IMG/VR virus record: IMGVR_UViG_2833400001_000001
Location: 5,232-69,231 of that record
Origin: a virus
Lineage: Duplodnaviria > Caudoviricetes
DNA: 64,000 bases
Direction: 5' to 3' (one strand)
Part shown: positions 8,544 through 43,206 of the stretch, in pieces
Layout of the letters: each line of letters starts with the position of its first letter
Numbering within the stretch: the first letter of the stretch is position 1
Position numbers and translations under genes: made by a program
The notes under the pieces: generated by a model
Databases searched by the model: none
Told to the model about the DNA's origin: nothing
What the model saw: only the letters and a program-made list of their open reading frames with translations

Positions 8544-9724
8544 GTTTACCAGATATTCAATTTACGCCAGAAGGCGTCATTTTGCCAACAGAAGAAGATA
8601 TTTTAAACGGATTGTTTGATATTTTTGATACTGCGTTTAGTAGCAAGTTAAACAGAAACTTAGAAACACCACAAGGCCAACTTATCACATCACTTACCGC
8701 AATCATTGCTGATAAAAATAATCAAATTGCCTGGCTAGCTAATAATCTCGATCCGACATTTAGTGACGGTCGAATGCAAGATGCAATTGGTAATATTTAT
8801 TTTTTATCACGCAAAGGACAAATAAATTCAACTGTAGTTTGTGAGTTTACTGGTATGGCTGGAACAGTAATACCGAAAGGCTTTGAGCTTGTTGATAACA
8901 ATGGAAATTCTTGGTTTTTGAATAAAGAAATATCTATATTATCTAGCGGCACAGTGACAGGAGAACTGACGGCAGCTGGTGTATATAGTGCAGAAAAAAA
9001 CACGATTACTACAATTAAGAGTGCTATTGTTGGCTTAGATAGAGTAACTAATCAAGAAGCGGCTATTATCGGTATTGAAAAAGAAAATCGAGCTGATTTC
9101 GGCACTAGAATCAAAAATAGTGTGGCGAAAAACTCGCAGGGTATGTTGGGTTCTATTTATTCTAACGTATCTGATTTAACAGGCGTTTTAGATTGTTACG
9201 TTGTTGATAATGTCAAAGATACACCGATTACTGTTGGCGTAACAAATTACACGCTTACACCGCATAGTGTTTATGTTGCTGTTGTTGGTGGTGATGAAGC
9301 AGAGATCGCAAAAAATATTTGGATCTACACAGGGAATGGTTGCGATTATAACGGTAATACAACAGTCAATGTTACAGATGATAACTACCAAACACCAAAA
9401 CCGACATATGAAGTTAAGTTTATGCGCCCAAATCCAACACCAATCTATTTTAGAGTCAAAGTAAGACAAGGTGCGCAATTAAATTATGAAAGTGCGGTAA
9501 AAGAAGCGATTATTAATGCATTTAGTAGAGAAACACTCAATAAAATAGGTAGTCAGTTGTATGCAATGACTTATGCAAGTGACATCATCACTGCACTATC
9601 AGGAAGTAAGCTACTTGATATTGATGTGTCTTTATCAAGAGATAATTATGCTGATTATGTTGAGTTAGGAATAGATCAATATCCTATTGTGTCATCAGAT
9701 AGCATTGAGGTGATATTAGTATGA
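8540..9724 (+). CDS. Baseplate J/gp47-like protein
   Basis: 394 aa; ETPQGQL, DGRMQDAIG, PHSVYVAVVGG, GCDYNGNTTV motifs. Confidence 0.85.
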   Translation: MSLPDIQFTPEGVILPTEEDILNGLFDIFDTAFSSKLNRNLETPQGQLITSLTAIIADKNNQIAWLANNLDPTFSDGRMQDAIGNIYFLSRKGQINSTVVCEFTGMAGTVIPKGFELVDNNGNSWFLNKEISILSSGTVTGELTAAGVYSAEKNTITTIKSAIVGLDRVTNQEAAIIGIEKENRADFGTRIKNSVAKNSQGMLGSIYSNVSDLTGVLDCYVVDNVKDTPITVGVTNYTLTPHSVYVAVVGGDEAEIAKNIWIYTGNGCDYNGNTTVNVTDDNYQTPKPTYEVKFMRPNPTPIYFRVKVRQGAQLNYESAVKEAIINAFSRETLNKIGSQLYAMTYASDIITALSGSKLLDIDVSLSRDNYADYVELGIDQYPIVSSDSIEVILV

Positions 9725-10419: not shown

Positions 10420-11493
10420 ATGAATACACCAAAACTCATTTCAAAGACGTGGGCTGAAAACGGCTTAAAAAATAGCATTCCTAACGATAGAGAAGTCGGA
10501 TTTTCTGATGAAAGGGCGACTTATGAAGAAGGATTTCCATCTATCACAATGACACCTATTGCGCAGGGTGGTAAAGCGCCATCAGGTAAAGATATGAACG
10601 GTATTTTGCATGAAATTACAGCTCATATCGTTTTCCAAAATAAAGGTGGAACGTATCAATTCAATCAAGATTTTGCTAATGAAATTGGTGGGTATGAAAG
10701 AGGATCTATATTAATCAGTGATGATTACACAACAGTATTTGTAAGCTTAGTTGATAACAATACATTAAATTTTAACACAGCCGAAGATTATTCTAGATAT
10801 TGGTCTGTTATTGCCACAACTGGTGTCGCACCGAAAGATCTAGATGAAACAAGCGAAAGTATAACAGATAAAGCAGGTCACTCTCACAAATTACCGATTG
10901 CGACATTATTCGCCAAAGGTATTACAAGTCTATATTCAGGCTATGATTTAGCTAGAGAGGATTTAGCTGCAACACCAAAAGCTATAAATACACTAAAAGC
11001 CTTTATAGATGCACTCGCATCTAATCAACAAAACTATATTCCTAACAGCAAAAAATCTAACTCATTAACATCACCAAGCGCTGACAATGTTGCTACTAGC
11101 TATGCAGTTAATCAAATTTATTCAGCGGTTGTTGCATTATTCAATGGTGATAGATCGGGATTTCAGAGTATTGTTAATTCGTGGGGTGTTTCAGGTATTA
11201 CGCCACTCGGTGTTTCATACGATTTTACTAATCCAAATGCATGGTGGATTAAGTTTGGCCCACTCTATGGAAATCTAATTATCCAAGGGGGACTGATCAA
11301 CGTGACTGGAACTGCTCGATGGTATAATTACCCCATCACTATGTCGAAAAGATTATGTGTAATAATCGGCGCTGCCACATCGCAAGAATGGGGTGTTGTC
11401 GATAGCGTACTTAGCGATACATCAAAATTTCAAGCGAGAAAAACTAATGATAGCTCAGGAACAAATTATTGGTACGCTATAATTGGAGCCTAG
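10420..11493 (+). CDS. Tail fibre: constant region plus currently expressed variable tip (cassette A, 11283-11493)
   Basis: N-term GFPSITMTP..GGKAP.GKDMNGIL baseplate anchor; HSHKLP and AATPKA fibre repeats; NLIIQGG junction coincides with the repeated crossover site. Confidence 0.9.
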   Translation: MNTPKLISKTWAENGLKNSIPNDREVGFSDERATYEEGFPSITMTPIAQGGKAPSGKDMNGILHEITAHIVFQNKGGTYQFNQDFANEIGGYERGSILISDDYTTVFVSLVDNNTLNFNTAEDYSRYWSVIATTGVAPKDLDETSESITDKAGHSHKLPIATLFAKGITSLYSGYDLAREDLAATPKAINTLKAFIDALASNQQNYIPNSKKSNSLTSPSADNVATSYAVNQIYSAVVALFNGDRSGFQSIVNSWGVSGITPLGVSYDFTNPNAWWIKFGPLYGNLIIQGGLINVTGTARWYNYPITMSKRLCVIIGAATSQEWGVVDSVLSDTSKFQARKTNDSSGTNYWYAIIGA

Positions 11494-11725
11494 CCAAGGG
11501 GGAGTCGTTAGAGCTAATGGAATGCCTATTCCTTGGAGTTTCACTTATCCAATTGTGTTATCCTCAAATTTATTATATGCAGATGTAATTAGATATGGTG
11601 GTGCAGGTGCATTCTCAGAGATTATTCAATATAGAGGGTTATCATATTTTACTTGGATAGATAAAGATTGCAGCAACAAAACTGGAGGAGGTGATATTGT
11701 TGGCGTTATTGTTGTTGGGGTCTAA
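11494..11725 (+). other. Silent tail-fibre tip cassette B (QGGVVRANG...VIVVGV*)
   Basis: Open frame from site to TAA; no own start codon or RBS. Confidence 0.85.
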
Positions 11726-11981
11726 CCAAGGGGTAGGTATAGTTAGAGTAAAAGCAACGAACGGGCTAGGTATAACGGTAAACTATCCTGTCAATTTATC
11801 TAAATTTTTGGGAGCAGTAATGACTCCAGAATCTGGGCAAATTGACAATACCAAACCTTACCCTACATTTGAGGGAACGAAATTAAGAAATGCAACAAAT
11901 ACTAGCATATATTATTACAATGATTACGAGAGCACAGAAATAGATAGCATTGTGAGTCTGTTTATTGTAGGTGTTAATTAG
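11726..11981 (+). other. Silent tip cassette C (QGVGIVRVK...FIVGVN*)
   Basis: Variant site CCAAGGGGTA; open to TAG 11979-11981. Confidence 0.85.
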
Positions 11982-11986
11982 TCTAG

Positions 11987-12227
11987 CCAAGGGGGAATGA
12001 TTGCCGATCTTATATCTAACAGACCTGTTTATTTGCCGATAAGCGTGAACAATATTTTTGGTGTTTGGGGTAGTGATGTTGCAGAATATCCCAACCCCAT
12101 CGTGTTTAATTTTAACTATTTCACAAGTATATCTTTTTCAGTAAATGGCGACAGAATAAAATCAAAGATGGATGATCTACACACAGGTACTAATATGTGG
12201 TGTAGATGGATTTGTGTTTGTATTTAA
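11987..12227 (+). other. Silent tip cassette D (QGGMIADL...ICVCI*)
   Basis: Open frame from site to TAA 12225-12227. Confidence 0.85.
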
Positions 12228-12230
12228 TAA

Positions 12231-12444
12231 TTAAACGCCAAGAAATAGTACATTACAAAGCGGTTTATCTGGAAGTCGCGGATCTGATGTTATTCTGTAC
12301 TCAGACTGACTTATAGCACTAATACCGAGCGGAACCGATACGCCGCCAACGTCGGTTGCGACAGACGATATACAACGTTCAGAGAATTGTATTGCAAATT
12401 TTGCAACGGTATTTCTATTTTCACACCAAATCAATCCCCCTTGG
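12231..12444 (-). other. Silent tip cassette E (QGGLIWCEN...LFLGV*)
   Basis: Minus-strand site; converges on cassette D. Confidence 0.85.
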
Positions 12445-12450
12445 CTCGCA

Positions 12451-12682
12451 TTAAATACCAACAACGTAGTACATCGCTGGCCAGTTCGGAGCTTTAGTCG
12501 GAGATTCTGGCGAATAAAACCTTATGCGAACTGAAGAATTATTAGTTGTATTTTCATAGATATTGAAACTCATTGTTAATGATCCAATGTGCATCATATC
12601 CATATAAAACAAATGTGTTAATTTAATTGGGGATGTCACCGTTGCTTCTGCATTAGAATCTGATTTGATCAGTCCCCCTTGG
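12451..12682 (-). other. Silent tip cassette F (QGGLIKSD...YVVGI*)
   Basis: Shares CCAAGGGGGACTGATCAA with the expressed site. Confidence 0.85.
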
Positions 12683-12931
12683 CTAGACACCAACGCTTAT
12701 CCAGTGAGTAAGTATATTTTTTAGATTTTTATCACCGGCACTAGCTACAAACCAAAAATCACGCAGTCCTAAATTTTCAGCAGTTTTCGATAAATAGTAA
12801 TCGTTTATTCCAAGTCCAAGTTCTCCGCTAGCATAGAAATGACTTTTTTGTATGAAATTGCTAATGATATTTTAGAGATGCTGTAACCTTTACCATCATA
12901 GTTAAAAGCATGTATAAAAGCTCCCCCTTGG
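12683..12931 (-). other. Silent tip cassette G (QGGAFIHAFNY...WISVGV*)
   Basis: Translated by hand, open frame to TAG at 12683-12685; absent from ORF track. Confidence 0.85.
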
Positions 12932-12938
12932 CTAGGCG

Positions 12939-13158
12939 TTAGATGCCAGCAACAACATACCTACACCATACATTCGATGTTGCTCCCGACCTTCGTCCAG
13001 ACACTCTAAATGATGACAAACTATAATCGTAAAAACTTATTGACAATGGATCTGTTACAGCAACATCATTAGCTAATACACATAGCATTTGACTAGATAA
13101 ATTTATGGGTATAGTAACTCTTGTACCGTTGACAATATCAAAAAGGATTCCCCCTTGG
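12939..13158 (-). other. Silent tip cassette H (QGGILFDIVNG...YVVAGI*)
   Basis: Translated by hand, open frame to TAA at 12939-12941; absent from ORF track. Confidence 0.85.
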
Positions 13159-13308: not shown

Positions 13309-14334
13309 TTATTTTAATAGATTTATTGTTTTTCTTAAGTGAATCAATGTCTTATGTGTATATACTGCATCTCCAACGTTTGATGATGCGTGTCCGAGTA
13401 ATTTATCTCGAGCAACTTTGTTTGCTCCAGCGGCGTCAAGTAATGTTGCAACTGTGTGTCGGCAATCGTGTGTGCTATGCTTTGCTCTGATTGCACGCAT
13501 TACTCGTGCAAATTGTGATGCTGCTTGCGAGTAAATTAGAGCCGTTAAATCTTGATTAACAAATAAGTATTTTGCGCGCTTATTCTCGTGCATTTTTCGT
13601 TCAATAATGGGGAGTATACGTGGGTGTATTGGGATAATACGGATGCCGGCTTTTGTCTTTGCCGTCACAATATCAAAATACTTTTGCTTAAGATTTACGC
13701 AAGACCGCTTTAGTTGCAACAACTCACTGACTCGCATACCGGTGTACAGTAAAATTAGCGTTAAATCGGTGTTGACTGTCGTACATTGCCACACTCGATT
13801 AATTTGTTGGCGTGAAAATATTTTATGTGGGTTTTTCGGAGTATTTTTGCCCATTTGCAAATATTGTCCATATGACTTATCTACCCATTCGTTAATAATA
13901 GCGTATGAAAATAGTTGGTTAATCAAAGATCTTACTTTTTTAAGACTTGCGTATGACAATCCTTTTTCTCGCATTGTATCTAGCACTGTCTGTAGATGAC
14001 GATATTTAATCTTATTAATCGGCATTGCGCTAATCGTTGCAAGGTGATTATAGCTATTTTGATAACTTGATGCGGTTGCAATAGATACTTGTTTTGTGTG
14101 AATTGGATACCAGAGCTGATAAACTTTTGCGAGAGTTACGCTAGGCTCTGGCTTGTCTTGCTGATTGTAATTAGCTAGTGCAGTTAATGCTTCGTCTCTT
14201 GTTGCGTAGTATCCAATTACATTATAAATCTGTTTTTTCTTTTCATTATATCCCACGGTCTTGCGAGCAACATAAGGTTTGCGTCTTGATCCACTTAACT
14301 TCACAACTGAGCCATAGCCATTTGGTAGTCTCAT
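13309..14334 (-). CDS. Tyrosine recombinase, probable shufflon invertase
   Basis: Catalytic set TGMRVSEL, KTKAG, HDCRH, LGH, VYTH; directly beside the inverted-site cluster. Confidence 0.85.
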   Translation of the reverse strand: MRLPNGYGSVVKLSGSRRKPYVARKTVGYNEKKKQIYNVIGYYATRDEALTALANYNQQDKPEPSVTLAKVYQLWYPIHTKQVSIATASSYQNSYNHLATISAMPINKIKYRHLQTVLDTMREKGLSYASLKKVRSLINQLFSYAIINEWVDKSYGQYLQMGKNTPKNPHKIFSRQQINRVWQCTTVNTDLTLILLYTGMRVSELLQLKRSCVNLKQKYFDIVTAKTKAGIRIIPIHPRILPIIERKMHENKRAKYLFVNQDLTALIYSQAASQFARVMRAIRAKHSTHDCRHTVATLLDAAGANKVARDKLLGHASSNVGDAVYTHKTLIHLRKTINLLK

Positions 14335-14426: not shown

Positions 14427-15068
14427 ATGGCACTAACACATTTAATTGTTATTGATCCAAAGAGTGGAGAAAGAGTGACATCTTATGTTGTACCAATTCA
14501 CGGTAAAACATATGAGGTGTTACTAGATAAAGCGCAAGCAGACTATCCCGGATATCTATATTTGCGAGATAATGATGGTGAGTTGCAAGCGATATTAACG
14601 CGTCAAGATGCGCATTGGTTTAACAATAAAGTTCAGATTAGACCATCTCAAATTCACGACTGGGATGGTTCTGCGTGGGTGATTAACGAAGAAAAAAAAG
14701 CAGAGTTACTTAAAAATCAACAAAGTGCAACTTGGGAGCACATTAAAGCAGAAAGGACAAGACGTACTGAAGGTGGTGTCTATGTTAAATCAGTTGATAA
14801 ATGGTTTCACACAGATCAGCCGAGCCGTATTCAGTATTTAAGTATTCAACAAATGCCGACATTACCAGAAAGTTTTGCTTGGAAAACTATGGATAATACA
14901 TTTGTTAATATGACAAAAGCATTGATTGATGAATTGATTTTATCTTTGCGCATTAAAGAACAAGCTGATTTTGCAAACGCAGAGCGACATAAAGCGGCAA
15001 TGTTAGAGAGCGATAACCCCGCAGACTATGACTATTCAGCAGGATGGAGTGACATTTATGACGAATAA
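14427..15068 (+). CDS. Tail fibre assembly-type protein (DUF4376-like)
   Basis: HDWDGSAW, WEHIKAER..GGV...KWFHTD, WKTMDN, AERHKAAM motifs; homologous to 56853-57590. Confidence 0.75.
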   Translation: MALTHLIVIDPKSGERVTSYVVPIHGKTYEVLLDKAQADYPGYLYLRDNDGELQAILTRQDAHWFNNKVQIRPSQIHDWDGSAWVINEEKKAELLKNQQSATWEHIKAERTRRTEGGVYVKSVDKWFHTDQPSRIQYLSIQQMPTLPESFAWKTMDNTFVNMTKALIDELILSLRIKEQADFANAERHKAAMLESDNPADYDYSAGWSDIYDE

Positions 15069-16697: not shown

Positions 16698-16780
16698 AAA
16701 ACCACATAAAGTGAGATTTTTGCGTTTTTAATATTCTCATTTTATGTGGTTTCATTTCTCAAATTATGCGGCTTGCTACA
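16698..16780. promoter_or_regulatory. Mu-type right end: sites R3 (16699-16718, inverted), R2 (16733-16752), R1 (16755-16774), terminal CA
   Basis: R2 ATTCTCATTTTATGTGGTTT vs R1 TTTCTCAAATTATGCGGCTT 15/20 at 22-bp period; R3 reverse complement 18/20 to R2; R1 ends 6 bp before ...GCTACA. Confidence 0.8.
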
Positions 16781-19700
16781 GCCAATGCCAAAAAAATGCC
16801 CTCAAAGAAACACGTAGAATTTTAGACCAATTTGCTGAACGTTGTGGTGATCGTGTCTGGCAAACGGCAATTACTCACGCTGGTTTGCAAACGTTAAAGC
16901 AATTATTACGGCAAACAGCAAGAAAAAATACAGCAGTCGCCTGTTATTGGACGCATGGAAAAAATCAAACTTCATTATTGTGGATAGTAGGCGATCAACG
17001 ACAATTTAATCAAAAAGGGCGTGTACCAACCAATCGAACTCAACGCAATATTTTACGGCAAGAAGATGAAATTGCTTGGCATAATGCTTATAGCATACAG
17101 ATTATTAGTGCATTAGCGGCGTTGTTGCACGATTTAGGCAAATCTAGTATCGGTTTTCAGGAAAAATTAAAACCACAAGCGCCTTTTTATGCTGATCCTT
17201 ATCGACATGAATGGATTTCGGTACGGATATTTGAAGCAATGATTCAAGGATGCCAAACCGATATGGAATGGCTAACACGCTTGGCGAATTGGGCGGAATA
17301 TCAGCAGCAAAATTCAAGTTGGTTGCAACAGATAAAGATAGAAGATCCAACACCAAAACAAGGGCGATTTGAACAGTTATCACCATTAGCGAAAACGATT
17401 ATTTGGTTAATTTCTTCACATCATAGGGTGCCGTATTTACCAGAATTTGCCGAAAAAAATAATAAGCGGAAAAAGGTATGGGAAACGGAAGTAGCGCACG
17501 ATTTAAAGCGTTTTTATCGGTTGTTATCAGCAAGTAATGGCTGGGTTGCTAATCCGCATAGTGAACATCCACAACCGAAGAAATTCTGGCGTTTTAATCA
17601 GTTAGTTTCAGATAGCTCTGCGTGGCAAAAAGCAATGACTCGTTGGGCAAATAAAGCCTTAAAACATACGTCGTTAATGAATTTAGTCAGCAATGTTGAA
17701 AATATTAGTGATCCTTTTTTATTGTTGTTGAGTAGATTGTCATTAATTACAGCTGATCACCATTATTCTTCACTTAATCCTAATCCTCAATTTGGAGAGA
17801 AGGATTTTCCTCTATTTGCGAATACAGATGCGAAAGGGCAGACGAAACAACGTTTAGATGAGCATTTGCTAGGTGTTTGTCAAAGTGCAGTGCGTTTTGC
17901 CCGTATTTTGCCAAGATTGAAAACATTGTTGCCAGCATTAACACATAAAAGTTTTAATAAACGGAGTGATATTGCTCGCTTTCAATGGCAGAATCGAGCT
18001 TTCGATTTAGCAAAACGATTACAAGCCAGTACTGAACAGCAAGGTTTTTTTGGCGTAAATATGGCGAGCACTGGATGTGGTAAAACTGTTGGAAATACTC
18101 GCATTATGTATGCACTCGCCAATCCGCAATTAGGGGCAAGGTTTACTATTGCTTTAGGATTAAGGGTATTAACTTTGCAGACAGGTAGAGCTTTAAAAGA
18201 TAAATTGCGATTAGATGATGATGCACTGGCTGTATTGGTAGGCGGTGATGCTGTTAATAAGTTATTTGCTTTACAGCAAGAAAAATCTGGTAGTGAATCT
18301 GTCGAAGATTGGCTGGAAATGGCACAAGTTGATGGCGGTATAGTTGGAGAGAGTGCGTTAGATAACCTTGCAGAATTTAATACATTGCTTGCTAATCATA
18401 AAGCGAAAAATTTATTACTTACCCCACTCGTTACCTGCACGATTGATTACTTGATGAATGCTAGTGAATGCTTGCGAGGTGGTAAACACATTGTGCCAAT
18501 ATTACGTTTATTGAGTGGTGATTTAATTCTAGATGAACCAGATGATTTTGATCAAAATGACTTGCCAGCCTTGAGCCGTTTAGTGCATCTAGCAGGATTA
18601 TTTGGCAGTAAAGTGTTGCTTTCATCTGCAACATTAACGCCAGATTTGGTGAGTGGTTTGTTTGAAGCTTATCAAGCAGGAAGAAATGTTTGGAATCAGA
18701 ATAATCAATTACCATCTCAAGGCGTTTGTTGTGCTTGGTTTGATGAATTTAATCAGCAAAGTTTTTCTTGTTCAGATCTCGCCAGTTATCAAGCACAGCA
18801 TCAAGAATTTGTTCAGCAAAGAATTAATAAATTGAAACAACAACCCACCAGACGTATGGCAAAAGTAATGTCTTTGCCTAGTGTTGCTGGTGGGGAAAAT
18901 CAAACACTGAATTGGCCGCTATTTGCTCAACATCTGTTACAACAAGCAATAGCATTTCATACCGAGTTTGCGATTAGTGATGATTCATCTACAAAACGAG
19001 TAAGTGTTGGCTTGCTACGGTTTGCGAATATTCGTCCAATGATTCCAACTATCCAAGCAATGTTGCAACAACAATGCCCAGAAAATACAGAAATCCATCT
19101 TTGTTGTTATCATTCACGCCAATTGTTGTTATTACGTAGCCGCTTAGAACAAAGTTTGGATCGCTTATTAACACGAAATGATCCACAGGCTTTATTTCAA
19201 CAACCTGAAATAAAATTAGCATTAGACAATAGCCAAAATGAAAATCATATTTTTATTGTAGTAGGCAGTCCGGTGACGGAAGTGGGACGTGATCATGATT
19301 ACGATTGGGCAATTATCGATCCGTCGTCAATGCGTTCTATTATCCAATTAGCTGGACGAGTGTGGCGACATCGTCCAGATAAAGTTGCAACAACGCCGAA
19401 TATTGCATTGTTACCAAGTAACTGGAAAGGGCTAAAAGGGCATCACTATACACGAGAAATTTTTTATCATCCCGGTTTTGAAAGCAGTGAACATCCTCTC
19501 ATTTCTCACCGTACACAAGATATTATTAACCCAGAACAACTTGCTGTTGTGGACGCAGTAGCGAGAATTGAAGCTCCAACTGAATTGGATGAGAATGCGA
19601 AGGCACAAAAAACGCTAGCAGAGTTAGAGCATAGTGTGATGAGAAAGATGTTTAATAGTTCTAGTTTAAATTATGTCAATGGCTATTGGCGTAGTGATAA

Positions 19701-20088
19701 TGCTAAATTAGCTGCACACTATACGTTGACTACGCCGTTTCGGGCCTCACAAAAAATGGAAGATTTTGTCTGTTTACCTGATGATGAAAGTTCGTGGGGT
19801 TATGCCTTTGCGTATAGTGAAAAAGCACATCAGAATTTATTCTCTTGTAATAAAGAGTGGCATAGGTTTCAGTATCAACCGATTAAAAATCAAAATTCAC
19901 TGATTAAGCCATGGCTTGTTTTTTCCTTAACAACAGCATTGGATGAGCTAACAGAAGCATTAAAGTTAAAAGATATTGAACAAACAGCGTTATCTTATGC
20001 AACCGTTTCATTAAGAAAAGATGAGCAAACAGAAGCAGTTTGGCAATTTAATGAGTTTTTAGGCTTTTGGCGACAGGAAGAGCAATAG
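16744..20088 (+). CDS. cas3: Type I-F Cas2-Cas3 fusion helicase-nuclease; native N-terminus replaced by phage-end sequence
   Basis: SQCQKNALKETRRILDQFAER (Cas2), LHDLGK (HD), STGCGKT, ILDEPD, SAT, QLAGRVWRH; first 12 codons come from the Mu-type end. Confidence 0.95.
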   Translation: MWFHFSNYAACYSQCQKNALKETRRILDQFAERCGDRVWQTAITHAGLQTLKQLLRQTARKNTAVACYWTHGKNQTSLLWIVGDQRQFNQKGRVPTNRTQRNILRQEDEIAWHNAYSIQIISALAALLHDLGKSSIGFQEKLKPQAPFYADPYRHEWISVRIFEAMIQGCQTDMEWLTRLANWAEYQQQNSSWLQQIKIEDPTPKQGRFEQLSPLAKTIIWLISSHHRVPYLPEFAEKNNKRKKVWETEVAHDLKRFYRLLSASNGWVANPHSEHPQPKKFWRFNQLVSDSSAWQKAMTRWANKALKHTSLMNLVSNVENISDPFLLLLSRLSLITADHHYSSLNPNPQFGEKDFPLFANTDAKGQTKQRLDEHLLGVCQSAVRFARILPRLKTLLPALTHKSFNKRSDIARFQWQNRAFDLAKRLQASTEQQGFFGVNMASTGCGKTVGNTRIMYALANPQLGARFTIALGLRVLTLQTGRALKDKLRLDDDALAVLVGGDAVNKLFALQQEKSGSESVEDWLEMAQVDGGIVGESALDNLAEFNTLLANHKAKNLLLTPLVTCTIDYLMNASECLRGGKHIVPILRLLSGDLILDEPDDFDQNDLPALSRLVHLAGLFGSKVLLSSATLTPDLVSGLFEAYQAGRNVWNQNNQLPSQGVCCAWFDEFNQQSFSCSDLASYQAQHQEFVQQRINKLKQQPTRRMAKVMSLPSVAGGENQTLNWPLFAQHLLQQAIAFHTEFAISDDSSTKRVSVGLLRFANIRPMIPTIQAMLQQQCPENTEIHLCCYHSRQLLLLRSRLEQSLDRLLTRNDPQALFQQPEIKLALDNSQNENHIFIVVGSPVTEVGRDHDYDWAIIDPSSMRSIIQLAGRVWRHRPDKVATTPNIALLPSNWKGLKGHHYTREIFYHPGFESSEHPLISHRTQDIINPEQLAVVDAVARIEAPTELDENAKAQKTLAELEHSVMRKMFNSSSLNYVNGYWRSDNAKLAAHYTLTTPFRASQKMEDFVCLPDDESSWGYAFAYSEKAHQNLFSCNKEWHRFQYQPIKNQNSLIKPWLVFSLTTALDELTEALKLKDIEQTALSYATVSLRKDEQTEAVWQFNEFLGFWRQEEQ

Positions 20089-20185: not shown

Positions 20186-20995
20186 GGTCTAAGCTGCCTA
20201 TGCGGCAGTAAAGGCACAGGAAGAGGTACCTGCTCACATCATGGATTTCTAAGCTGCCTATGCGGCAGTAAAGAAACATCTATTGATTTGCATGGTATTC
20301 ATTATTTTCTAAGCTGCCTATGCGGCAGTAAAGTTCGCCATTAAACATTTAGGATGTTTTAATGATTTCTAAGCTGCCTATGCGGCAGTAAAGAATGGGT
20401 TTATGCCGGTGGGGAAAAGTTACCATTTCTAAGCTGCCTATGCGGCAGTAAAGTGCGGATCAAGTCTTTAATTGGGCGGATAACTTTTTCTAAGCTGCCT
20501 ATGCGGCAGTAAAGCATTACCAGTTTCGTAGTGACTAGGTGTAATCTTTCTAAGCTGCCTATGCGGCAGTAAAGGAGTACCGAGAAAGCTACATCAAGAT
20601 CTACATTTTCTAAGCTGCCTATGCGGCAGTAAAGTTATTCGGACTCTAACCAAGGGGGAACGCTAGTTTCTAAGCTGCCTATGCGGCAGTAAAGGTCTCA
20701 TTGTACTGTCCGCCTAGTACGTTCGTTTTCTAAGCTGCCTATGCGGCAGTAAAGCACTATCAGGTAAACCTGTTATGCTTAGAAATTTTCTAAGCTGCCT
20801 ATGCGGCAGTAAAGCTAGTAGTAAAAAGCCAAGAAAGAAAAATAATGTTTCTAAGCTGCCTATGCGGCAGTAAAGTGAGTATTGCTACATTGATATTAGG
20901 CGAAAGTTTTCTAAGCTGCCTATGCGGCAGTAAAGTAAGTGTGTAATTCGTCGCACCAACAGTGATTTTTCTAAGCTGCCTTTATGGCAGTGTAG
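20186..20995 (-). CRISPR. Type I-F CRISPR array, 14 repeats (28 bp, CTTTACTGCCGCATAGGCAGCTTAGAAA), 13 spacers of 32-33 bp
   Basis: Repeats counted by hand; Cas6f-type hairpin CTGCC-GCATA-GGCAG; both terminal repeats degenerate; orientation supported by CC PAMs of two near-matches. Confidence 0.98.
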
Positions 20996-41049: not shown

Positions 41050-43206
41050 ATGGCAGAAGCAAAAACATTAGATGGCTTTGGCAGTGAGTTACAAGGCTTA
41101 CTGTATGAACAAATGAAACAACGTCAACCAATTACTGAGCGTTGGGTTAGTGATATGTATCAATATCGTAATCAGTACGAAAGCGGTACAAAAGCAAACG
41201 GATCACAAGTCTTTGTTGGCTATACGCGCAGTAAAACGGATGCGTGGACAGCTCAAATGACAGATATGTTATTTCCATCTGATGATAAAAACTACGGCAT
41301 TCAGCCCACACCAATCCCTGAAATCGCAACACTTGCAAAACAGCAAGCAGAAACACCCGATGTTATAATGGCAAGACAGTTAATGCAACAAGCCAAAGAA
41401 AGTGCTGAAGCTATGGAGAAATTAATTGACGATCAGTTGCTCGAATGTGATTACGCTGCTGAAGCAAGATTATGTTTACATTATGCGGCGGTATTGGGTA
41501 CAGGAATTTTGCGAGCGCCGATTGTTGAATTAAAAGAAAAACGCTATTACCAACAAACGCCGAATGGTGAATGGCAGGCGCAGACAGAAAGTTATATTGC
41601 ACCAACAGCTAAAGCAATATTGCCATGGGATTTTGTGCCAGATATGTCAGCACCAACATTAAAAGACTGTTTGTTTGTGTTTGAGCGTAATGCGGTAACA
41701 AAAAGAGAGTTACAAAATCTTGCTAAACATCCTTACTACTTAAAAGATAATGTATTGCAACTCTTAGAATCTGAGGCATCAGAAACGCATAACAGCAGTA
41801 GTGATTTATCGTCATATAACGATACATTGCGTGAGTTATCTGGTTTAGAAAAGGTCGTAAATGATAAGCGATACGAGTTATGGACATATCATGGGAATAT
41901 TCCTGTTTCATTAATCGAGCAAGCAAACCAACAGTTAGCAGATAGCTATAAGATTGAACTAACAGAAGAACAGCAACAATTAGAAGAAATTAATGGCGTT
42001 GTGGTGATGTCAGGTAACGGCAAAATTATTAGCGTAAATGTGAGTCCGTTAGATTTAGATGATTTCCCTTACTCGGTGTATGTTTGTGAACCTGATGCAG
42101 CTTGCTTATTTGGCTTTGGCATTCCTTATCTTTGCCGAGATGCGCAAGAAATCCTTAATACAGCGTGGCGAGGAATGATTGATAACGGCGTATTGACGAT
42201 TGGCGATCAAGTTGTTGTCAATAAGTCTGTATTAGAGCCGGCTGATAAAGATTGGAATATTAAGCCTAATAAAGTTTGGACTACCACAGGCGGAGCTGGT
42301 GTGGCTGCACAAGTCGAAGCACAACGAGCATTTGGGGTATTTTCGTTTCAATCTCGACAAGCAGAATTTGCTAACATCATTCAAATGTCAAAGGCATTCA
42401 TGGATGAGGAAAGCGGTTTACCGATGATTGCTCAAGGGGAACAAGGGCAAGTGACACCAACACTTGGTGGAATGTCTATGTTAATGAACGCGGCCAACGC
42501 AGTACGTCGCAGACAAGTAAAAGAATGGGATGATTCTGTTACCAAACCGCTTATCAGACGATTTTACGAATATAACATGCAGTTTAGTGACGACCCTAAA
42601 GTGAAAGGCGATATGCAAATTATTGCGCGCGGCACTTCTGCTTTGTTGGTCAAAGAAACGCAAACAGCACAGATTATTGACTTGCTAGACCGTTTTGGGC
42701 AACACCCAGAATTAAGCCAGGCTTTTGATTGGTATGATGGCTTACGAACATTGATGCAATCTATGTCGATGGGGGCTAAAAATATGCTTATCCCTCGTGA
42801 GGAATATGAACAGAAACTACAACAAATGCAGCAAGCACAAGCACAGCAACCGCAAGACCCTGCAATAATGAAAGCACAAATGGAAATGCAGTTAGCGCAA
42901 CAGAAACAGCAACATGAACTACAAATTGCACAATTGAAGCTTGAATCTGAGCTGAAAATTGAGCAAATGAAAGTAGCAATCAAAGAAAAAGAACTTGAGA
43001 TCAAACTAATGGAAATCCAGGCAAATCAACAACACTCTCAACAAAAATTGCAGGTAGATAAAGAGCTAAATCAAGCTAAGCTGACTGCTGATTTGCAACT
43101 CAATACCGGTAAACAAGCGATCGAAATGCAGAAATTTAAAACAGAGGTTGCATTAAAGAACCAACCAACCACTAACCCAACAGGTAACTACGGGTTAGAA
43201 CAGTAA
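41050..43206 (+). CDS. Portal protein with coiled-coil barrel tail
   Basis: 718 aa after TerL; Gln-rich C-terminus as in podovirus portals. Confidence 0.85.
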   Translation: MAEAKTLDGFGSELQGLLYEQMKQRQPITERWVSDMYQYRNQYESGTKANGSQVFVGYTRSKTDAWTAQMTDMLFPSDDKNYGIQPTPIPEIATLAKQQAETPDVIMARQLMQQAKESAEAMEKLIDDQLLECDYAAEARLCLHYAAVLGTGILRAPIVELKEKRYYQQTPNGEWQAQTESYIAPTAKAILPWDFVPDMSAPTLKDCLFVFERNAVTKRELQNLAKHPYYLKDNVLQLLESEASETHNSSSDLSSYNDTLRELSGLEKVVNDKRYELWTYHGNIPVSLIEQANQQLADSYKIELTEEQQQLEEINGVVVMSGNGKIISVNVSPLDLDDFPYSVYVCEPDAACLFGFGIPYLCRDAQEILNTAWRGMIDNGVLTIGDQVVVNKSVLEPADKDWNIKPNKVWTTTGGAGVAAQVEAQRAFGVFSFQSRQAEFANIIQMSKAFMDEESGLPMIAQGEQGQVTPTLGGMSMLMNAANAVRRRQVKEWDDSVTKPLIRRFYEYNMQFSDDPKVKGDMQIIARGTSALLVKETQTAQIIDLLDRFGQHPELSQAFDWYDGLRTLMQSMSMGAKNMLIPREEYEQKLQQMQQAQAQQPQDPAIMKAQMEMQLAQQKQQHELQIAQLKLESELKIEQMKVAIKEKELEIKLMEIQANQQHSQQKLQVDKELNQAKLTADLQLNTGKQAIEMQKFKTEVALKNQPTTNPTGNYGLEQ

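Follow-up and report, generated by a model that had tools for sequence, protein, structure and literature searches.

The window considered here is the whole stretch of 64,000 nt that was analysed, and is part of an IMG/VR record with a total length of 69,231 nt. It includes a prophage (prophage 1) with a tail-fibre gene, a block of alternative fibre tips separated by short repeated sites, and a recombinase gene, followed by a cas2-3 gene and a CRISPR array, on the leader side of which a second prophage (prophage 2) begins. The features of the region are listed in Table 1.

Table 1. Coordinates of the tail-fibre and CRISPR features in the window.
Feature	Position	Strand	Details
Imperfect target of the newest spacer, in the baseplate J gene of prophage 1	9226..9257	-	25/32
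Tail-fibre gene	10420..11493	+	PF03406; constant part to 11282, currently fused tip cassette 11283-11493
Shufflon	11283..13158	.	Eight CCAAGGGG(G/T)A sites, four per strand, each opening a start-less cassette
Best match to spacer 8 in the window (site C of the earlier note)	11711..11742	+	21/32, with a 13-nt identical run and no GG after it; 11972-12003 is equally good
Tyrosine recombinase, presumed invertase	13309..14334	-	PF00589, E 1e-19; 150 nt beyond the last site
Cas2-3 fusion, type I-F	16744..20088	+	PF21384 (Cas3_I-F_Cas2), E 9e-38, plus Cas3 C-terminal and HD domains
Type I-F CRISPR array	20186..20995	-	14 repeats of 28 nt, 13 spacers of 32-33 nt, repeat period 60-61 nt
Spacer 8 of 13	20635..20666	-	Sixth spacer counted from the leader; flanked by two perfect 28-nt repeats
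Leader-proximal (newest) spacer	20936..20967	-	25/32 to the baseplate J gene of prophage 1 at 9226-9257, GG PAM

The crossover sites of the shufflon are located at 11283, 11494, 11726, and 11987 on the plus strand, and at 12435, 12673, 12922, and 13149 on the minus strand. The eight cassettes opened by these sites are in frame with the site and begin with Q-G-G (Q-G-V in one case), and most of them end in a hydrophobic residue, a glycine, a further hydrophobic residue, and a stop codon. Seven of the cassettes encode 69-84 amino acids. The remaining one, which belongs to site 12922 (12805-12931, minus strand), ends after 41 amino acids, and is probably a decayed tip. Orthologues of the recombinase, with 74-84% identity, are found within a few hundred bases of sites of this type in four of the six Gallibacterium species genomes. 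Judged by its sequence, the locus has the composition of a phage tail-fibre shufflon of the Rin kind, that is, multiple sites in both orientations, start-less in-frame cassettes, and an adjacent tyrosine recombinase.

This arrangement recurs in related elements. The two-site pattern was recovered from 22 viral contigs and from three of 236 Pasteurellaceae species genomes, all three of which are Gallibacterium. In a survey of 111 distinct junctions, taken from the window and 31 related loci, the Q-G-G opening was present in 109, and a stop codon abutted the site in 60, with glycine at position -2 in 31 of these 60 junctions and the complete hydrophobic-Gly-hydrophobic-stop ending in 24. Fibre homologues from Gallibacterium and its relatives contain the motif (N/G)LIIQGG at 70-90 amino acids before a C-terminus of the form hydrophobic-G-x. 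No close relative of the constant part of the fibre was found in the viral contigs. Some relatives of prophage 1 have other pools of cassettes, as in two loci (L036 and L037) that encode a DUF2612 baseplate protein identical to that of prophage 1, together with three sites and other tips.

The shufflons of this family also differ in the arrangement of their cassettes. Two IMG/VR records from different isolates (L020, 1471-2159, and L021, 5157-5845) have the same shufflon sequence, apart from one 407-nt segment between inverted sites that is exactly inverted in one relative to the other. As a result, 11 of the 15 nt that precede a given cassette start are different. Given this exact inversion, junctions do get re-paired in nature, and re-paired junctions are also present in two further loci (L017 and L018). 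Within the window, the upstream flanks of the sites differ from one another, in pairwise comparisons, at 5-13 of 15 positions, with a mean of 9.1. Assemblies of related phages (L051, L052, L053, L040, L042, and L032) break repeatedly in the fibre gene or at a crossover site, a pattern to be expected if the sequenced culture held a mixture of inversion isoforms.

When read on the minus strand, the repeat of the CRISPR array is CTTTACTGCCGCATAGGCAGCTTAGAAA, which has a CTGCC...GGCAG stem and ends, at its 3' side, in ...CTTAGAAA, as in the canonical repeat of the type I-F systems. The host is a Gallibacterium close to G. salpingitidis F150, as indicated by the presence of the exact repeat in F150 and by the Cas2-3 sequence, which shares 99% identity with its F150 counterpart beginning at residue 11; the earlier note had assigned the host to the Pasteurellaceae, which was right. 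The same Cas2-3 and array, with spacer 8 and without window spacers 5 and 6, are found in assembly GCA_001678545.1 (L025, JTJT01000007.1), the contig of which starts at the prophage 1 end, 1.5 kb ahead of cas2-3.

Spacers other than spacer 8 match several targets in the window. In addition to the match of the newest spacer (Table 1), spacers of F150 match the minus strand at 133-164 (32/32), 61127-61158 (31/32), 43171-43202 (30/32), and 11235-11266 (26/32), the last of which is just before the first site of the shufflon, while a spacer from another Gallibacterium species matches the plus strand at 14470-14501 (28/32). All six of the window targets matched by the window array and its sister arrays have GG directly on their 3' side in the plus-strand reading, which corresponds to the 5'-CC PAM of type I-F. 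As the repeat is in its canonical form on the minus strand and GG follows every matched target, the crRNA would be minus-sense, with the leader on the right. The spacers of F150 target both of the prophages in the window, and F150 would be immune to the phages of prophages 1 and 2, whereas the window strain is lysogenic for both.

The CRISPR locus itself looks disabled at present. In F150, cas1 overlaps cas2-3, and in a related Gallibacterium species (L048; G069:C1:122000-141000) the order is cas1, cas2-3, the array, and four convergent ORFs, with the repeats facing the same way as those in the window. These four ORFs have the sizes of cas6f, csy3, csy2, and csy1, a putative assignment that is made by size alone. 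In the window, cas1 is absent from its usual place upstream of cas2-3, and no complete cas set (cas1, csy1-3/cas6f) was found. The homology with the cas1/cas2-3 region of F150 begins at GCCAATG, at approximately codon 7 of cas2-3, with prophage 1 DNA upstream of this point (window 16700-16780), so the phage end interrupts cas2-3 within its first codons, and the ORF now begins at a start supplied by the phage. Given the intrusion of prophage 1 into these codons, the loss of cas1, and the presence of prophage 2 at the leader side, spacer 8 is best taken as a historical record, left by a past infection.

Directly after prophage 2, at 62550-62641, there are two degenerate I-F repeats and one 32-nt spacer, facing the other way from the main array, and the gene that follows, from 62723 onward, encodes a GHKL-type ATPase (PF13589), and is not a csy gene. 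The possibility that the 69-kb record represents a single circular phage with its own CRISPR was rejected, given that the record has no terminal overlap, and that the ORF at its end has no sensible continuation across the ends. The chromosomal location of cas2-3 and the array in both F150 and the related species G069 also speaks against it.

Spacer 8 is 32 nt long, and occurs only once in the window at up to three mismatches. On direct translation, it reads L-F-G-L-stop, then CCAAGGGGGA, and then Q-G-G-T-L, with a single C between the stop codon and the Q-G-G-T-L codons. It is thus composed of the end of one cassette (LFGL-stop), the 10-bp crossover site, and the start of a second cassette (QGGTL), which confirms the structure described in the earlier note, where the spacer was said to have been captured across a shufflon crossover site. 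In the order of the crRNA, the PAM is followed by 7 nt of the cassette start (the PAM-proximal end being ...ACGCTAG), the site, the stop codon, and 12 nt from the end of the upstream cassette. With one mismatch allowed, the window contains nine copies of CCAAGGGGGA, against an expectation of 0.98, and eight of these copies are the sites of the shufflon, while the ninth is in spacer 8.

The probability of the combination TAR+CCAAGGGGGA is approximately 1.1e-8 per position, or approximately 6e-6 over the 13 spacers and both strands, as estimated at 37% G+C. On this estimate, the contiguous stop codon and site constitute a signal that is beyond chance. The similarity of the whole spacer to sites 11726 and 11987, at 21/32 each, is not in itself above the level of chance, since values of 20-21/32 are also attained by other spacers at some place in the window. 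The 13-nt run shared by the spacer and site 11726 is TCTAACCAAGGGG, and this site is followed by TT, not GG, and therefore has no PAM, so that the identical run of 13 bp, the overall count of 21/32, and the lack of a PAM all hold as the earlier note had given them. Neither of the flanks of spacer 8 matches any of the eight local cassettes, also in agreement with that note. The succession of LFGL-stop, site, and QGGTL fits the junction grammar of the shufflon family exactly.

The source of the spacer was sought in a number of sequence collections. The earlier note had expected a perfect match at a fibre cassette junction with GG on its 3' side, which was not borne out in the phage, plasmid, viral, genome, or metagenome collections. 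Searches with blastn returned no target in 50,697 phage records (best alignment 22/25, E 3) and none in 72,556 plasmids, and the spacer was not found at up to three mismatches in 236 Pasteurellaceae species genomes (F150 and 235 others). The viral contigs contained neither the exact left half with the site, nor the site with the exact right half, nor the right half with a GG PAM, and a wobble-degenerate pattern of the full spacer was found in no genome, metagenome, or viral contig. The best match outside the window was 23/32. In the six Gallibacterium genomes, the sole match to the right half at up to two mismatches was CCAAGGGGGAACGTTTG, a QGGTF cassette in G069, and neither QGGTL nor an LFGL ending was present in any of 120 fibre homologues. 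Variants of baseplate J with the peptide of the newest spacer, which would have offered another route to the source, were also absent, and each of the three nearest contigs is cut off within the fibre gene.

As no protospacer was found, the source, its PAM, and its phage nature are read solely from the junction grammar and the genomic context. This context includes the relatives with other cassette pools and the I-F spacers, with GG at their targets, that the Gallibacterium arrays direct against both prophages. Given this, the derivation of spacer 8 from a relative of prophage 1 with other cassettes is well supported, and with it the suggestion of the earlier note that the host had met a relative with a different cassette pool.

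A chance resemblance, in which the spacer would come from unrelated DNA that happens to hold CCAAGGGGGA, is hardly credible. The 10-mer does occur by chance in one metagenome I-F spacer, although in a high-GC array and with no stop codon before the motif, whereas spacer 8 has a stop codon directly against the site, in register with the junctions of the family. The upstream codons, moreover, end in F-G-hydrophobic, the commonest type of cassette end, the downstream frame opens with Q-G-G, as in almost all of the surveyed junctions (109/111), and the low expectation of approximately 6e-6 applies to the 13-nt motif alone. The host genus is also one in which the shufflon is carried by four of six species genomes. 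An origin from the strain's own DNA, either from another of its prophages or from an earlier set of cassettes in prophage 1, would account for the same structure. Self-targets would be tolerated in a damaged CRISPR locus, and the cassette pools turn over between close relatives. This origin is nonetheless very unlikely, given that the target is absent from the 69-kb record, which is the portion of the strain's genome that was searched, and, at up to three mismatches, from F150 and the 235 other Pasteurellaceae species genomes, and that the position of the spacer, sixth from the leader and common to two assemblies, indicates that it predates recent events.

Spacer 8 is therefore most readily understood as an ordinary I-F spacer, which was probably taken by an ancestor of the strain across a cassette joint of an unsampled relative of prophage 1, in an incidental capture, with the locus having been disabled since then. 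The donor in this process would be a relative of prophage 1, either a phage or an element resembling a phage tail, and the recipient an ancestor of the Gallibacterium strain. The captured 32 nt would span the joint between two cassettes, with four final codons and a stop codon from one tip, then the crossover site of 10 bp, and then the opening codons of the cassette that follows. The target would be present only in the genomes in which those two cassettes adjoin, and if the crossover site took part in an inversion, the 12-15 nt farthest from the PAM would be exchanged.

The spot of the capture is most likely incidental, as one GG-flanked 32-mer among many. In a model of random capture, the 32-mers flanked by GG in the visible part of prophage 1 (22 kb) were sampled uniformly. 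A whole site was contained in 9 of these 1374 32-mers, and at least one such spacer would be expected in up to 8% of the arrays with 13 spacers. If capture is random and limited by the PAM, roughly 0.3-0.7% of spacers would span a site. Random capture is thus a sufficient explanation for spacer 8.

The earlier note had gone further, and linked the shufflon to the evasion of CRISPR, which is plausible in mechanistic terms as an interpretation of the arrangement of the spacer. In this case, part of the source phage population would always lack the junction target, and the shuffled isoforms would keep the PAM, the seed, and some 17-20 matched nucleotides, so that the PAM-distal mismatch would allow escape from cleavage by Cas2/3 and might prime new acquisition. 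In its strong form, this explanation would make the evasion of CRISPR part of the reason why such shufflons persist. The layout of spacer 8 is compatible with such an effect, with the cassette start and the site towards the PAM, and the end of the upstream cassette away from it. The natural inversion isoforms (L020 and L021) alter 11 of the 15 PAM-distal positions, and the upstream flanks in the window also differ among themselves (5-13 of 15, mean 9.1). A checkpoint of R-loop length is documented for type I-F1, and, in a Pasteurellaceae system of this subtype, the shortening of the R-loop at its PAM-distal end abolishes cleavage by Cas2/3 (PMC7296934).

The case for evasion is, however, based on a single spacer, and the other spacers against the same phage would be unaffected by shuffling, while the known role of such shufflons is the switching of host range (PMC6109161). 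No second site-bearing spacer was found among the 54 spacers of F150 or, in either orientation, in the six Gallibacterium genomes, and the metagenome I-F arrays, in which the one high-GC chance match was found, contained no site-bearing spacer with the shufflon grammar. In a non-exhaustive search of the literature, no paper describing an escape from CRISPR through a shufflon was found. Real evasion through shuffling is considered unlikely. It is equally doubtful that the programmed inversion of the shufflon maintains a standing pool of genomes without the junction-spanning target, as a reversible and mutation-free escape route that doubles as a host-range switch. If this were the case, a spacer such as spacer 8 would protect against some isoforms only, and the shuffled isoforms would escape I-F cleavage and possibly prime uptake.

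Spacer 8 provides a clean natural example of a CRISPR memory derived from the junction of a site-specific recombination system, and suggests that Gallibacterium has met shufflon-bearing phages with tip repertoires that are still unsampled. It also offers a simple and testable case of whether programmed DNA inversion can blunt CRISPR immunity. It is, at the same time, a single ordinary spacer, unusual only in where it was taken, and the CRISPR locus around it has since been broken by two prophages. Phage receptor-binding shufflons with tyrosine recombinases are already known, as in the case of Rin (PMC6109161), and spacers against tail genes are commonplace. Spacer 8, with its crossover site, amounts to a neat curiosity that can serve as a test case, and not to a new system.

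The closest of the known systems is the Rin shufflon of the Bifidobacterium prophages (Mavrich et al. 2018, PMC6109161), which, like that of the window, is phage-borne and has a tyrosine recombinase adjoining the locus, with short asymmetric crossover sites placed before start-less alternative cassettes for the C-terminal, receptor-binding part of the protein. Inversion isoforms of Rin are found between genomes, and no CRISPR spacer is tied to a Rin junction in that study (PMC6109161). The shufflon of the window differs in its Pasteurellaceae host, in its site, which is CCAAGGGGGA, as against the 11-bp rix site TTCCCTAACCC of Rin, and in its set of eight cassettes of approximately 70-85 amino acids. 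The Min (p15B), Gin (Mu), and Cin (P1) systems also switch the C-termini of tail fibres by site-specific inversion, which involves multiple sites in Min, although these systems use serine invertases (PMC6109161). The recombinase of the window, by contrast, belongs to the tyrosine family (PF00589). In the R64 shufflon, the tyrosine recombinase Rci drives multi-site inversions that swap the C-terminal segments of the adhesin PilV. Unlike the locus of the window, the R64 shufflon is plasmid-borne, alters a pilus in place of a phage fibre, and differs in the sequence of its sites.

With regard to the CRISPR locus, the nearest comparison is the type I-F1 system of Aggregatibacter actinomycetemcomitans (PMC7296934), which shares the bacterial family, the subtype, the 32-nt spacers, and the Cas2/3 effector. 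That system is intact and has been tested experimentally, and a full-length R-loop is needed for cleavage (PMC7296934). In the window, by comparison, cas1 and the first codons of cas2-3 have been displaced, no csy genes are in view, and the system is known from its sequence alone. Phages can escape from CRISPR by point mutation, deletion, or recombination of the target, after which the crRNA no longer matches in full. An escape through the shufflon would differ from these routes in relying on a programmed and reversible change that the phage population would already contain.
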